Positions 21,001 through 30,000 are shown, counted from the first letter of the stretch. The stretch is DNA of 41,295 bases from Pseudomonadota bacterium (GCA_034439715.1 JAWXAY010000049.1:1-41295); one strand, 5' to 3'. Numbers are program-made.

Positions 21001-24000
21001 CATGGAAAGTTCTAAGGCGCAGGTTTGGTTGCTGAATACCGGCTGGACTGGCAAGGGCTACGGTCACGGCGATAGATTTCCGCTGGCTGTTACTCGCGAA
21101 ATATTAAGAAATATCCAATCGGGCCATTTAACAAAAGCGCCCATGAGTCAACATGCTACCTTTGGTTTTGAAGTGCCCACAAGTATTTCTGGTGTTGATG
21201 GTAAGTTCTTGCAGAGTCAAGATCCTGAGCAAGTAAGTATGCTGGCCGAAAAATTTATAGATAACATGAGCAAGTTTTCAAATCTTGAATCAGGCGTTAT
21301 CGAAAAGGGTGGGCCCCGCCCCCCAAAGCATCACGGCACTAATTCCAAAAAGTCAGGCCCTGGCCACTTTTTGTAATATTGTACCAAAGAGATTTTCGCC
21401 ATTTTGATTTAACATTTTAATTTCGATTGTGTCGCCGATTTTCATAAACGGCGTTTTAAATTCACCGCTTTTAATTTTTTCTCGCATTCTTACTTCTTGA
21501 ATGCAGCTGGCTCCGACGCTTTCGTCAGCGTTTGAAACGGTGCCACTACCGATAATTGTTCCTGCCGATAGATTCCTCGTACGAGCAGCATGAGCTATCA
21601 GTTGTCCAAAATGAAAGTGCATTTCTTTTGCATTGGCCTTACCAAAAAATTCTCCGTTTAGATTTACTAGCACTGGTAATTTAATTCTACCGTTACTCCA
21701 AGCCAAATCCAATTCATCAGCTGTAATGGCAAATGGCGCAAAGGCTGATGCTGGCTTACTTTGGAAAAAGCCAAACCCTTGAGCTAATTCTTCAGCAACA
21801 AGTCCCCTTAAAGAAACATCGTTAATGAGGACAAATAGTAAAATACACTTTAGCGCGGCTTCCGGAGAAACGCCCATCGGCACATTCGAAGTAATCACTC
21901 CTACTTCGCCCTCAAAATCAGTGCCATGACCCATCTCTATTTGCGGAATGTCCGCACGGGGAGCCAGAAATTCATCGCTCATGCCCTGGTACATTAGTGG
22001 CACGGTATAAAGACTCTCCGGCATTTCGGCATTACGCGCTTTACGTACCAATCGTACGTGCTCTAAAAATGATGAGCCATCAGCCCACTGAAATGATCGG
22101 GGCAATGGAGAATGAAAATCCGCCTCATTTACGTTAAATGAGTCACTGACATTACCAGCGTTAAGATCCTTATAAATTTTTTCTAATTTGGAAAAAGTCT
22201 CTTGCCAGTTTTCGACGGCCTCTCTTAAACAAGATGCGACTCCAGTCGCCTTAATGGCCAATTTATTATCCTGACTTACAACGACTAATTCGCCATCAAG
22301 CTTTTTTGCGTGTTTTAATGTACCTAGTTTCATAGTTCTCCTAAAAAATGCTGGCGCTGTTTCTAGCTTTAACATATTCTAAACTCATGTCGCTAATTCT
22401 ATACAGCTACTTTCGAAGTTCCTCCAGTTATCGTGTGCGAATAGCTCTCAATTTAAAAGGTCTTGAGTATGAAATCAAGCCTGTTCATTTGATGAAAAGC
22501 GGCGGCGAACAGAATATGCCGGAATATAAAAATCTAAATCCTTTAGGAGAGGTTCCTTGCTTAGTTCATGACGAAATGGCCGTTGGCCAGTCGATGGCAA
22601 TTATTGAGTATTTGGATCGGATTTTTCCGGAGAAAAGGCTCTTTCCTGTAGCGGCGGCAGAGGGTGCGCATGTCCGACATTTTTGCGAGGGCATTAATAG
22701 TGGCATTCAGCCATTTCAAAACCTTAAGGTCTTACAAAAGATAGAAAAAGACTTTGGCGCAACTCAAGAGATGAAAAGCTCTTGGGCAAAACATTGGATT
22801 ACAGAGGGGTTTAAAGGTCTCGAAAGGCTTCTGGAAAAACACTCCAGAAAGTATTCTTTTGGCGACGAACTAACTGCGGCCGACTGTTTTTTAATACCGC
22901 AGGTATTTAGTGCAAAAAGATTCAATGTCGACATGATTCCATTTAAAAAAATTCAAAGTGTCTATAATCACTGTACCAAATTACCAGAATTCGTTAAGGC
23001 TTCTCCAGAAAATCAAGTAGACTTTGAATAATCCTCGCCATTCAGAGCTAAAAAAATAATCAAAACCACAGTAGCCACAATTCCTGCAGCTAACATGGTG
23101 TGCAATACTGTGATCAACGCAGGCAGAAAGAATTTAATGTTGGCAATACCCAGCGCCACCTGCACTAGTACCAGCGTAATTAATATGCGCGAGGTCTGCA
23201 CGATCCGAGGTTGTAAGACTCGGACTTGGCTTAAGTTCAGAAAAGTAAAAAACATAATTACTGTCAATAATGTTAAATAGGCGCCTAGTCTATGCATCAC
23301 ATGTAAACCCACGAGGCCCTCAAGTGTAGGGACCAACTTTCCAAGACAAAGTGGAAAATCAACAGAACAGGCCAGGCCGGCATAATTAGATGCAACCTTG
23401 CCACCCAAAACAATCTGCAAACTCACCACCATTAAAACTATAATTCCGCCAAAGACTACCCATCGAGGGGCCGGCATGCTTTTCCTATCATTTTTGTTCA
23501 TACTTATTTTCACGCTCTTGGGCAGCGACAAATATATCCAAAGCATCAGAGACAAAAAACCAATTCCCAAAACTAGGTGTGTGGTCACATACCCTGGCTC
23601 TAAAAGCTTAAGCACCGTAAGTGCTCCCATTGCCACTTGAACGCCATAAATCACTAGCGCTAAAAATCCTGTCATTTTAATATTCTTTGAAATATTTTTA
23701 TTTGTTAAAATCTTGCCAAACATCAAAACCGTAAAGACACCCATGGCGCCCGCCAACGCTCGGTGAATAAACTCAAAATAAACTTGAGGATGGTAATCGG
23801 GAATAAACTTACCGAAACACAATGGCCAATCGGGGCAGGCCAATCCAGCATTCATAGCGCGAGTCGCGCCACCCAGCCCAATTACCAAAATAATAACGTG
23901 AAGAAGAAGTCTAAAGGTTTTTAAATAGCGTTCGCTCACAGGAAAATTCCATACCACTTATCAAATACAGGTGCGATCATAAACAAAACCATACTGACGT

Positions 24001-27000: not shown

Positions 27001-30000
27001 CGATGATACAGAAACAGCGGCACCAATCATTAGACAGTACCAGCTCAAAAGATTTACCCGAGGAAAGGCCACATCTTTGGCGCCAATTTGTAAAGGTAAA
27101 AAGAAGTTTCCTAGAAATGCCGGTATGCCAGGGATAATAACCATGAAAACCATTATCGCTCCATGCATAGTCATGGCACGATTGTATCCGTCAAAAGTGC
27201 TAAAAAAACTGAGACCCGGGGTAAATAACTCTAGCCGAATCAGCATGGCATACGTTCCGCCAATCAAGAAAAATGTCGCAACGGCCATAAAATACATTAG
27301 CCCAATTCTTTTATGATCCGTTGTTGTCAACCATGACCAAAGACCCTTGCCGTGATCAAGGTAGCTATGTGAATGGGAATCTGCGTGAGCCATGAGGTAT
27401 CTCCTACTTTAAACTTTTCAAAAATTCGATCACTGCCGATATTTCCTGTTCAGAAATTTGACCGGCAAATGGCGGCATGACGCCTTTTGCAAAACCGGCG
27501 ACTGTCTTTGCGTTGGGATTTAATACGGATTCACGAACATAGTTTTCGTCATACTGAGCACTGCCGCCACCTTCAAGCAACCTAGCTGTGCCAAACATGC
27601 CCTTATAGCTGGGACCAATACTGGGCTTTCCATCAGTTGTATGACAAGCGACACAGCCTTTATCGAGGTAAACTTTTTTGCCCATATCGGCAAGGCTCAA
27701 TCCTTTATACGGGTCTGTCGCAAGCCAATTTTCAAATGCCTCCGGAGACAGAACTTTTACTTTTGCTAACATCTCTGAGTGCTTGGCGCCGCAATACTCG
27801 GTACAGAAAACTTGAAACTCACCCTCGTAATCAGAATTAAACCACACGCTCGTAAACATCCCTGGCACCACATCTTGCTTAATACGAAATGCAGGAACAA
27901 AAAAGCTATGTAAAACATCCGTTGAACTCATAATTAATTTAATCGGCTTACCTACCGGCACAATAAGATCGGGAGAGCTGCGACCGCTTTTATATTTGAA
28001 TTCCCAAGACCACTGCTTTGCAATTACGTGAACTTCAAAAGAATCTTTGGGTGGATTTCGCATCTGATCGTAAACGTACCAGCCCCATCCAAATACCAAC
28101 ATGAAAATCAAAAAGGGAATAAAACTCCAGGTAAACTCGAGGAGACCATTGTGAATTAACCCACCAGGCTTATCAGCAGCCGTGCGCCTTTTGTATTTGA
28201 AGGCAAAATAGATCATTCCACCAATTAATAGAAAACAAGAAATCGTACTAGAAATTACGAGAAAGCTATAGAGATCATCAACCTGACGAGCAATTTGCGT
28301 TCCCTGAAATGGCATAAAGGAATTGCCCCCTGCCAATGCATGATTTGTTAACCACATCATGAGTTCACTCCTCAGTCCTTTTCATTCGCTGTTTAATCCA
28401 AAACCCACCAAAAAACAGAGCCATCAAAAGCACCGTAAGACCTGCACCTGCGCGCATAATATTAAAGGCGTAGATTGTGTATTTGCTTTTCTTGGGATCG
28501 TATTTAAAACAAAAAAGCATAAAGTTACTGACAATATTGCTTATTTTGAGATGACTAGCTTCTGTCAGCGCCAAACTCATGGTTTTGGGTTCAAAAAATA
28601 CTCCATGTAAATAACGGGCTATCTTTTTTTCTGGAGTAATCATAATTGCTGCCGAAGCATGGGCCCACTCTTTAGTTTCCTCACTCCATTGGTACTTAAA
28701 TCCGACCTGTTTGGCCAGCGCCAGAACATCCTGTTTTTTTCCTGTCAAAAAATGCCAGCCTTCTTGTGCTCCGGGCGCAGAAAAAGCCTCTACGTAGCTT
28801 TTCTTTTTTTTGAGTGCTATTTCGGGCGTTTCTTTTTCATCAAAACTTATTGCCACAAATTCATAGTCTCGACCCGCCTTTTCAGAAATCTTTTGTAAGG
28901 CCTCGGCCACGCCATTAAGATGAAAATTACATAAGTTTGAGCAGCCAAAATAAACTAATGAGAGAATAACGGGTCTACCCTCAACAAAATACTGAGACAG
29001 TTTTACGGTCTTTCCTGACTCATCAATCAAATCAATGTCCGTATTCAGGCGATGATCAAGGCGCTCCGTAATGCCCACATTTGCAAGCTCCTTGGGTTTC
29101 TCGCTAGCCTTGAGCTCCACTTTTTTAGTGTCATAGGCCTGTGCAGAAATGCATAGGATGCTAGTAGAAAGAAGCGCTAGCCAACGTTGCAAGTTTATTT
29201 CTCCCCTTGGGCAAATTTTTCAAGCGCTTTAAGGTCGTCTTTGGGCAAGTTTTTAGAAACAGAACGAATGAAATGTACAATGGCCCAACGATCTAATTTT
29301 GATAAGTGACCAAATGGGGCCATAGCTGTTCCTGGCAATCCGCCAGTTACCGTTTTATATAACTGAATCGTAGTACCGCCAGCTGTCCATTTTCCTTCAA
29401 CTAAATTTCTGGGCTTGGGATTCATGGTTCCACTGGCTGGCCCGTCACCCAATCCAGAATTTCCGTGGCATACTGAACAAGACGTCGCAAACTTTTCTTT
29501 TCCGTACGTAACTAAGGCGGGTGTTGAAATCCATGGTGAGGTATTTTTACTTACATCTTCTTGAGGTGCTTGGCCTGTTGCCTCTGCCGTTGCGGCATTT
29601 ACTTCGACCTTTAGTTTGGGCTGATCAAGACCAAGAACGCCTTTATGAATAAAAGAAATGTAAATAAAAAAGCCAAAAGAAAAAACCATACTAAAAACAA
29701 AGGCCCAAAACCCGCTCCGGTTGTAATCATTTCGATCCAATCCCATTTTTTTACCCCAATAATTGTCTGATTTTTAAATAGATAGCTAGCATTATGAAAA
29801 ATTCCTGTCACGCATAAATAACTATTATAATTAACTGTTGCTGCTCAAGTTTTGTGCTTACAAGCCAACCGGATTTGTCTCAAAACGAAACAACATTGTC
29901 CTGTTTCACAAAAACTTCTATTAGCTTTGGACCCGTTGGGGTTATAATTGAATCATTATGAAACTAAAAAATACTTTATTCCTAGGGTTTGTCCTTTTAT

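Follow-up and report, generated by a model that had tools for sequence, protein, structure and literature searches.

A caa3-type oxidase operon in a bacterial family that has probably lost haem biosynthesis

How does a bacterium supply a haem A-dependent respiratory oxidase when its genome offers no recognisable route to haem? The question is raised by an operon at 23013-29746 of a 41,295-nucleotide stretch (the window) from a metagenome bin of family SG-bin7. The lineage carrying this caa3 operon has very probably lost the tetrapyrrole pathway and lives as a haem auxotroph that imports haem b, with prey as the likeliest source. SG-bin7 keeps haem-dependent respiration and is predicted still to convert haem b into haem O and haem A. 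This core reading is strongly supported because six pathway enzymes are missing from all four genomes of the family and because ctaA and ctaB are under purifying selection.

The oxidase operon

Eight co-directional open reading frames (ORFs), defined by an ORF map and Pfam searches, fill the minus strand from 23013 to 29746. The first gene (29195-29746) encodes a class I cytochrome c of 183 aa with one CxxCH motif (Cytochrom_C, 43.8 bits; Cytochrome_CBB3, 36.8 bits), and the second (28365-29192) a SCO1/SenC copper chaperone for the CuA site (SCO1-SenC, 41.1 bits). Oxidase subunit II (27404-28360) combines COX2_TM, a COX2 cupredoxin domain (68.8 bits, residues 90-201), and a fused C-terminal cytochrome c (Cytochrom_C, 41.8 bits, residues 226-318). 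Subunit I, the haem a and haem a3-CuB subunit (25798-27393), matches COX1 along the whole profile (1-436 of 436) at 497.6 bits, and among solved structures it comes closest to 2yev, the caa3 oxidase of Thermus thermophilus (465.6 bits). Genes for subunit III (25164-25811; COX3, 61 bits) and prokaryotic subunit IV (24816-25151; COX4_pro, 49.7 bits) come next. The operon closes with the probable haem O synthase CtaB, which would farnesylate haem b (23936-24835; UbiA, 137.6 bits), and the haem A synthase CtaA/COX15, which oxidises haem O to haem A (23013-23957; COX15-CtaA, PF02628, 157.9 bits against a cut-off of 29.9).

Assigned at the Pfam level, subunits I, II (with CuA and fused cytochrome c), III, and IV of an A-family haem-copper oxidase are thus accompanied by SCO1, CtaB, and CtaA in one operon. 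A first-pass annotation had described an aa3-type oxidase with haem O and haem A synthases. The operon and both synthases stand, and the enzyme is better called caa3 type because subunit II bears a fused cytochrome c. The gene content indicates an intact, working caa3-type operon that also encodes the two synthases for haem O and haem A.

The two synthases deserve separate attention. The top NCBIfam match of CtaB is the haem o synthase model TIGR01473 at 189.2 bits, under its cut-off of 210.3, with other matches far behind. The gene lies between those for cox subunit IV and CtaA, which supports calling it a haem O synthase. CtaA also matches a solved structure, Bacillus subtilis haem A synthase (6a2j, E 1.8e-10), and the alignment includes the Cys pair of the first half and the first His. 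The CtaA proteins of this genome (G000) and two others of the family (G002 and G003) share two conserved Cys pairs and four conserved motifs that contain His, which we take to be functional residues. A six-frame profile search recovered CtaA from all four SG-bin7 genomes. When the G000 genes are compared with their G002 and G003 orthologues, pN is 0.13-0.31 against a pS of 0.75-0.84 for ctaB, and 0.16-0.35 against 0.76-0.85 for ctaA. Amino-acid identity of the two proteins is 52-80% among these genomes, and the pS values, at 0.75-0.85, are saturated. Such ratios point to purifying selection that maintains both genes.

Absence of the tetrapyrrole pathway

Six-frame searches across the four SG-bin7 genomes found none of six enzyme families of the pathway. 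ALAD (HemB, PF00490), PBGD (HemC, PF01379), UROS/HEM4 (HemD, PF02602), URO-D (PF01208), ferrochelatase (PF00762), and GluTR (PF05201) each scored 0/4, against 11, 11, 12, 10, 8, and 10 of the 14 control genomes, respectively. The family-wide lack of ALAD and URO-D reported in the first-pass annotation is therefore borne out and extended to six enzymes. ALAD proteins from three relatives gave no tblastn match in G000 at E ≤ 0.01; a neighbouring gene from the same relatives does match. An Escherichia coli HemF query likewise had no match in G000. The family survey covered these six families; ALA synthase, HemL, HemN/HemF-type oxidases in the relatives, HemY/G/J, and ChdC would be moot if the absence of ALAD, PBGD, and UROS is true.

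ALAD, PBGD, and UROS are the enzymes whose joint absence Kim et al. (bioRxiv 10.1101/2021.01.11.426183) use to call haem auxotrophy, and all three are missing from SG-bin7. The upper and lower parts of the pathway, represented by GluTR, URO-D, and ferrochelatase, are gone as well. With none of the six enzymes matched, members of the family should be unable to make any tetrapyrrole. The lack of ferrochelatase further implies that they need intact haem, since iron could not be inserted into scavenged porphyrin and porphyrin alone would not suffice.

Haem proteins and haem handling

Enzymes that require haem are retained without the pathway. Beside the caa3 oxidase, G000 encodes alternative complex III (ACIII, ActA-E), a di-haem peroxidase, several PSCyt-type cytochromes, and the catalase-peroxidase KatG. 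CxxCH motifs number 62 in 49 ORFs, against 2.2 expected from composition, close to an earlier count of 48 proteins. KatG lies on a contig of only 3.6 kb and has an N-terminal extension resembling a signal peptide, so the enzyme may be periplasmic; for both reasons it is no proof of a cytoplasmic need for haem.

System II cytochrome c maturation is also in place, with a ResB-like gene (C75:48596-49972; 64.5 bits in Pfam) next to a CcsA-like gene (C75:49983-51647; Cytochrom_C_asm, 118 bits) that lies directly upstream of ACIII. The NCBIfam model TIGR03144 scores 160.2 on this system, under its cut-off of 187.6. ResB and a HemN_C-bearing protein were each found in 4/4 SG-bin7 genomes. The HemN_C protein of G000 is the radical SAM, HemN-like chaperone HemW (TIGR00539, 247.3 bits against a cut-off of 205.4); its assignment as HemN was rejected at 117.9 against 324.95. 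Every haem user or handler listed in the first-pass annotation and sought again was recovered, namely ResB/CcsA, ACIII, catalase-peroxidase, di-haem peroxidase, and HemW.

A route for imported haem can be proposed from this inventory. Intact haem b would enter the cell, and b-type sites would receive it through the HemW chaperone together with membrane partitioning. The oxidase would be served by CtaB and CtaA, which would turn part of the haem b into haem O and haem A. ResB-CcsA would move haem to the periplasm for covalent attachment to the c-type cytochromes of ACIII, the peroxidase, and the PSCyt group.

Candidate routes of haem uptake

The family lacks the canonical haem importers. TonB-dependent receptors (PF00593), carried by 56 of the 80 genomes picked from the order, are absent from all four SG-bin7 genomes, as the first-pass annotation had noted; its claim that Fur is missing from the family (0/4) also proved right. 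The class III binding protein Peripla_BP_2 (PF01497) had no match over the cut-off in any of the four, and HemS/ChuS (PF05171) was likewise 0/4. Haem oxygenase was 0/4 for PF01126, a family that leaves out IsdG-, HugZ-, and ChuW-type degraders. Weak FecCD matches were rejected as HmuU-type permeases; they are LivH-type and ABC-3/ZnuB-type permeases. Uptake probably proceeds outside the known systems.

Two weak candidates emerge. At C58:6919-12907, G000 carries its sole Opp/Dpp permease set, in which one operon encodes a family-5 binding protein, two permeases, and two ATPases. The oppC gene is frameshifted in G000 as assembled and intact in G002 and G003. SBP_bac_5 proteins occur in 4/4 SG-bin7 genomes, with five copies in G000, and the best NCBIfam match for the binding protein is OppA at 240.5 bits, far under the cut-off of 947. 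By analogy with Dpp of E. coli (DppBCDF with DppA/MppA) and with acI Actinobacteria, the single permease and its five family-5 binding proteins would be the most plausible inner-membrane step for haem.

The second candidate is a ChaN-like lipoprotein (C100:44861-45934; PF04187, 82.9 bits), present in 4/4 SG-bin7 genomes and possibly a periplasmic haem binder. A profile built from 32 homologues matches the haem-binding lipoprotein ChaN of Campylobacter jejuni (2g5g) at E 1.1e-13. Its invariant polar residues are also compatible with an enzyme, and its gene neighbours vary within SG-bin7; in one genome outside the family (G339), a TonB-dependent receptor adjoins a ChaN-like gene. The gene does not track auxotrophy, since it occurs in 30/37 ALAD-negative and 37/43 ALAD-positive picked genomes. 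Neither candidate is specific to auxotrophs.

Prey or environment as the source of haem

Digested prey is the most likely source of haem, because the order consists of Bdellovibrio-like predators. The first-pass annotation held that this lineage is a haem auxotroph that must use prey haem. Auxotrophy is upheld by the six enzymes missing from all four genomes; the prey source is inferred from taxonomy, the sequences themselves being silent on predation.

That silence also suits a different view, in which the auxotroph draws dissolved or community haem from its surroundings, not from killed prey, and may be no obligate predator at all. Free-living aerobic haem auxotrophs that subsist on pM-nM haem are documented, and Dpp-like systems, of which SG-bin7 has one, are the importers most commonly proposed for them (10.1101/2021.01.11.426183; PMC11139205). 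We nevertheless consider an environmental supply unlikely. Cultured members of the order are predators, and close homologues of the proteins come from entries labelled 'Bdellovibrionota bacterium'. A cell living on scarce haem would be expected to capture it with high affinity, and no TonB-dependent receptor is available for this; the 62 CxxCH motifs, moreover, imply a large demand. Prey haem therefore remains the preferred source.

Reality and extent of the loss

A further concern is that the pathway is present and was missed, through incomplete bins or hem genes binned elsewhere. All four SG-bin7 genomes are metagenome bins of 40-610 contigs, with completeness of 95.7% (G000), 89% (G001), 97% (G002), and 98% (G003), and absence from a bin is never final. 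Even so, such an oversight is very improbable. It would have to affect six separate enzymes in 4/4 genomes and spare other single-copy haem-handling genes (CtaA, the HemN_C protein, and ResB), which were recovered in 4/4. The expected hemB site, moreover, lies inside an assembled contig. Two relatives from a different family have hemB behind a His_Phos_1 gene. G000 has an orthologue of this His_Phos_1 gene (61.6% identity) inside a 30.9-kb contig, but there the next gene is homogentisate dioxygenase and hemB is missing. Nor are the contigs with the haem-handling genes of G000 a binning artefact, since their GC (0.42-0.43) is typical of the bin and their tetranucleotide profiles correlate with it at 0.98-0.997. 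Finally, one-contig genomes elsewhere in the order show the same pattern.

Those genomes belong to a contrast set of 37 ALAD-negative genomes from 26 genera, nine of them one-contig (closed), set beside 43 ALAD-positive ones; both sets are hand-picked, non-random, and include kin that are not independent. PBGD was found in 0/37 of the ALAD-negative set and ferrochelatase in 1/37. The exception, G064, keeps ferrochelatase as its sole pathway enzyme, a remnant that fits stepwise decay.

Loss reaches well beyond SG-bin7. Across the order, ALAD is present in 258 and missing from 126 of 384 genomes; among the 274 of good quality, 194 have it and 80 (~29%) do not. These counts replace the 48 of 61 given earlier and show that a loss peculiar to the family was too narrow a description. 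ALAD-negative genomes are scattered over many genera, and loss is patchy inside genera, both states co-occurring in at least eight. CtaA is present in 268/274 good-quality genomes, so at least 74 of these lack ALAD and have CtaA. Loss of ALAD from such a share of good-quality species genomes suggests that haem synthesis has repeatedly been dispensable in this order.

To our knowledge, all three described haem routes share the steps from ALA to uroporphyrinogen III. Against that background, and given that patchy loss within genera is more readily explained by repeated gene loss than by a hidden pathway and that G064 looks as stepwise decay predicts, a novel pathway without ALAD, PBGD, and UROS homologues is scarcely credible, even if Kim et al. 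(10.1101/2021.01.11.426183) formally allow that predicted auxotrophs might use a pathway still unknown.

Repeated loss invites a broader and more doubtful proposal, namely that Bdellovibrio-like predators share a general route of haem piracy without TonB-dependent receptor, HmuTUV, HemS, or haem oxygenase, which made synthesis dispensable, so that it was lost many times. Were this so, SG-bin7 would be its cleanest case, having no TonB-dependent receptor whatever. The importer would then be a new kind of uptake system, possibly the Opp permease with its long OppC and orphan family-5 binding proteins, or the order-wide ChaN-like lipoprotein.

Comparison with known systems

The oxidase resembles 2yev in its subunit I match and its cytochrome c-fused subunit II. 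It differs from 2yev, in which subunits I and III are fused, by having one gene for each of the two. The hosts of 2yev (T. thermophilus) and 6a2j (B. subtilis) synthesise their own haem, unlike SG-bin7. The ChaN-like lipoprotein belongs to the same Tiki/ChaN superfamily as C. jejuni ChaN (2g5g); the G000 gene lacks a neighbouring TonB-dependent receptor (ChaR), and the family is found order-wide regardless of haem synthesis.

Among classical auxotrophs, Haemophilus influenzae, Porphyromonas gingivalis, Bartonella, and Lactococcus/Enterococcus are host-associated and supply their respiratory oxidases and catalase with haem from outside. H. influenzae retains ferrochelatase only, as does G064. 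Their uptake systems can be recognised (TonB-dependent receptors, HmuY/HmuR, Isd, HbpA), and they rely mostly on bd-type oxidases, whereas SG-bin7 has none of the uptake systems tested and retains a caa3 oxidase that depends on haem A. Caenorhabditis elegans, trypanosomatids, and ticks are haem auxotrophs that convert imported haem b into haem O and haem A with COX10/COX15, relying on HRG-type or LHR1-type importers. SG-bin7 would resemble them in this conversion, in another domain of life.

Haem auxotrophy in free-living aerobes has been described for freshwater acI/Nanopelagicales (bioRxiv 10.1101/2021.01.11.426183, by Kim et al.) and for Flavobacteriaceae from marine sediment (PMC11139205), often without identifiable canonical haem receptors and with Dpp-like importers proposed. 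Neither paper discusses Bdellovibrio-like organisms in its main text (0 mentions in one, 1 unrelated mention in the other); the supplementary tables may list such genomes. Respiring haem auxotrophs are already known, and SG-bin7 adds to them a family that differs from acI and the Flavobacteriaceae in belonging to a predator order, in lacking any TonB-dependent receptor or HemTUV-type component, and in its very large set of c-type cytochromes.

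Haem synthesis is absent from SG-bin7

The four metagenome bins of family SG-bin7 (completeness 95.7, 89, 97, and 98%) lack each of six haem-synthesis enzymes sought by six-frame profile searches. Glutamyl-tRNA reductase, ALAD (HemB), porphobilinogen deaminase (HemC), uroporphyrinogen III synthase (HemD), URO-D, and ferrochelatase were all recovered in 0/4 genomes; between 8 and 12 of the 14 control genomes gave matches in the same searches. ALAD queries from three ALAD-positive relatives likewise returned no match in the genome analysed here (G000, GCA_034439715.1; tblastn, E <= 0.01), and the genes that flank hemB in the relatives do match it. 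In two relatives from another family, hemB follows a His_Phos_1 gene. The orthologue of that gene in G000 (61.6% identity) lies in the interior of a 30.9-kb contig, and the gene that follows it encodes homogentisate dioxygenase; no assembly gap occurs there, and synteny across families provides weak evidence.

Since ferrochelatase is missing too, salvage of porphyrins is excluded and haem itself is needed. Single-sequence queries with E. coli HemF and YfeX gave no significant match in G000 by phmmer and tblastn, a search that a very divergent HemF copy could escape.

Haem use is retained

The minus strand of contig JAWXAY010000049.1 carries a run of eight genes, all in the same direction, from 29746 down to 23013. 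By Pfam, they encode, in order, a class I cytochrome c; SCO1/SenC; subunit II of the oxidase, which has a cytochrome c domain fused at its C-terminus; subunit I (497.6 bits over the full profile); subunit III; subunit IV of the prokaryotic kind; the haem O synthase CtaB, a UbiA-family protein; and the haem A synthase COX15/CtaA. The cytochrome c fused to subunit II makes the enzyme an A-family oxidase of the caa3 type. Among solved structures, subunit I matches the caa3 enzyme of Thermus thermophilus best (2yev, 465.6 bits), and CtaA matches the haem A synthase of Bacillus subtilis (6a2j) in an alignment that pairs the first Cys pair and the first His.

The operon has ordinary housekeeping surroundings, with genes for PEPCK, FAA hydrolase, and GST on one side; on the other side, three ORFs without a Pfam match (29958-31508) precede SecA. 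These three ORFs appear lipoprotein-like, coiled-coil membrane-like, and zinc-ribbon-like, and they were set aside, as no tie to haem was seen. In GC and in tetranucleotide usage, the contig matches the remainder of the bin. Elsewhere on the contig, six Pfam-less ORFs followed by a large serine recombinase with Resolvase and Recombinase domains (5695-7293) occupy 887-7293, which may be where a mobile element ends. A 683-aa protein with Big_9/cadherin-like repeats (8949-10997) is probably a surface adhesin.

The first-pass annotation had described a haem-rich respiratory chain kept without a tetrapyrrole pathway, and this description holds across the family: CtaA, ResB, and a radical SAM protein bearing HemN_C are each present in 4/4 genomes. 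In G000, the HemN_C protein scores above the HemW equivalog cut-off and below that of HemN. In the same genome, the genes for ResB and CcsA, the System II cytochrome c maturation proteins, lie together, immediately upstream of the operon for alternative complex III. The ORF set of this genome contains 62 CxxCH motifs in 49 ORFs, against 2.2 expected from composition, and Pfam identifies ActA-E, a di-haem peroxidase, and several PSCyt-type cytochromes. KatG is also encoded (C103:584-2968; 52.9% identity to the E. coli protein). Its open frame starts about 70 residues earlier with a hydrophobic stretch resembling a signal peptide, which may place KatG in the periplasm; its gene lies on a contig that measures only 3.6 kb, with a GC of 0.45.

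The two synthases have been kept under selection. The ctaA and ctaB products share 52-80% protein identity among G000 and the family members G002 and G003, and non-synonymous differences amount to 0.13-0.35 per site. Synonymous differences, at 0.75-0.85, are saturated, which is why pN and pS are given and not dN/dS. Low non-synonymous relative to synonymous differences therefore indicate purifying selection since the genera of these three genomes split. The earlier proposal of a haem auxotroph that still makes haem O and haem A is right in its core, with ctaA and ctaB kept and the pathway absent; prey as the haem source of SG-bin7 is unproven.

Several further loci deserve mention. The family member G001 has an additional CtaA of another type (C513:1463-2176, 211 bits), which lies on a 2.2-kb contig and may be contamination, given a bin of 610 contigs with 4% contamination. 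In G000, about seven pairs of secreted proteins stand in a row (C27:13560-31979), each combining a single-CxxCH partner (PSCyt/PSD-domain or unannotated) with a DUF1501 or DUF1552 partner. This pairing is of the planctomycete type and occurs here in a haem auxotroph. Four CxxCH proteins also cluster at C17:2957-9609, where a pentapeptide-repeat protein and a small protein similar to cytochrome b562 (27.7 bits, under the 30-bit cut-off) are encoded as well; the latter might bind haem b in the periplasm.

Loss recurs across the order

The loss had been regarded as a peculiarity of the family, a view that proves too narrow. ALAD had been reported in 48/61 genomes of the order Bdellovibrionales; the larger sample is more negative, with ALAD in 258/384 genomes (194/274 of good quality) and in 87/121 genera. 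CtaA is found in 268/274 good-quality genomes. From these two counts, at least 74 of the 274 must combine absence of ALAD with presence of CtaA, and a genome-by-genome comparison of the lists gives 75. Loss of ALAD is not peculiar to SG-bin7.

A closer view was obtained from 37 ALAD-negative good-quality genomes (26 genera, six families, nine single-contig genomes), hand-picked and non-random, with relatives that are not independent. Porphobilinogen deaminase occurs in 0/37 and ferrochelatase in 1/37. The exception, G064, retains ferrochelatase alone (C6:60915-61955, 247.8 bits) and is negative for both ALAD and porphobilinogen deaminase, a Haemophilus-like intermediate state. ALAD-positive and ALAD-negative good-quality genomes coexist within at least eight genera (g5, g7, g12, g18, g19, g42, g66, and g113). 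Losses have thus been numerous, some of them recent.

In family f12, genera g98, g110, and g111 have small single-contig genomes of 1.2-2.3 Mb (e.g., G295, G296, G351, G354, and G360). In the five that were tested, ALAD, porphobilinogen deaminase, ferrochelatase, and the ChaN-like gene are missing, and CtaA and one to three TonB-dependent receptors are kept.

Possible routes of haem entry

Canonical uptake components are missing from SG-bin7. TonB-dependent receptors and Fur, already listed as absent in the first-pass annotation, are confirmed at 0/4 genomes each, and the same count applies to class III binding proteins above cut-off, HemS, and canonical haem oxygenase. Weak FecCD matches were discarded as HmuU, since Pfam assigns them to LivH-type (C100) and ABC-3/ZnuB-type (C10 and C94) permeases. 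For vitamin B12, G000 encodes a PduO-type cobalamin adenosyltransferase and a B12-binding radical SAM protein (C75:47156-47728 and C100:38618-40534), and BtuF/BtuC-type components were not found in this genome. Lacking these as well as a tetrapyrrole pathway and a TonB-dependent receptor, the cell must scavenge B12 too, through an unrecognised route.

Comparison of the 37 ALAD-negative genomes with 43 ALAD-positive ones, both sets hand-picked from the order, did not reveal enrichment of classical components in auxotrophs: Peripla_BP_2 occurs in 7/37 versus 20/43 and TonB-dependent receptors in 24/37 versus 32/43. In ALAD-positive genomes, a TonB-dependent receptor adjoins a Peripla_BP_2 gene (G190:C12, G004:C6, G225:C1, G197:C16, G193:C32, and G191:C8) or a ChaN-like gene (G339:C9:59230-61165). 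These are classical uptake loci, missing from SG-bin7.

Two candidates are left. The first, the sole Opp/Dpp-type ABC system in G000 (C58:6919-12907), might import haem together with five family-5 binding proteins, by analogy with E. coli Dpp and the candidate importers of acI Actinobacteria (10.1101/2021.01.11.426183). In the assembly of G000, oppC (C58:9524-10941) is split by a frameshift; it is whole in G002 (467 aa) and G003 (460 aa), where the product is unusually long and has an insert of about 170 residues after the first membrane segment.

The second candidate is a ChaN-family lipoprotein present in 4/4 SG-bin7 genomes and 0/14 controls. A search of solved structures with a single sequence found no match; the profile alone succeeded, retrieving C. 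jejuni ChaN (2g5g, E 1.1e-13). Its neighbors in G000 (AmpG and an M14-peptidase) are not kept within the family, and an enzymatic role would also fit its many invariant polar residues. As a marker of auxotrophy the protein was rejected, since it occurs throughout the order whether or not haem is made, with 30/37 ALAD-negative versus 37/43 ALAD-positive genomes of the hand-picked sets carrying it.

Implications and known precedents

If this reading is correct, haem auxotrophy offers a concrete, testable reason why many uncultured Bdellovibrio-like lineages need prey or hemin, and addition of hemin suggests itself as a practical route to their prey-free growth. The flow from prey to predator would then include haem, beyond amino acids, nucleotides, and lipids, and prey haem would be remodelled by the predator into haem O, haem A, and haem c. 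SG-bin7 would also be a good place to seek an undescribed haem importer, because every tested canonical component is missing, yet dozens of cytochromes need haem. Patchy, recurrent loss over 384 genomes of one order constitutes a natural experiment in which phylogenetic profiling could reveal such an importer. Two leads are worthwhile: the use of hemin as a growth factor for predators not yet in culture, and the search for a non-canonical haem importer.

Literature searches by title, abstract, and listing retrieved nothing on haem auxotrophy, haem biosynthesis, or hemin in Bdellovibrio, Bdellovibrionota, or predatory bacteria, and the main texts of two genome surveys (10.1101/2021.01.11.426183 and PMC11139205) do not discuss Bdellovibrio-like organisms. 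The presence, breadth, and recurrence of haem auxotrophy in this predator order thus appear undescribed in the literature searched, the trait itself being already known. Among respiring, free-living bacteria it has been shown by experiment in acI Actinobacteria, accompanied by a survey of 24,706 genomes (10.1101/2021.01.11.426183), and it has also been shown in marine Flavobacteriaceae, in a study that surveyed 3,760 genomes (PMC11139205).
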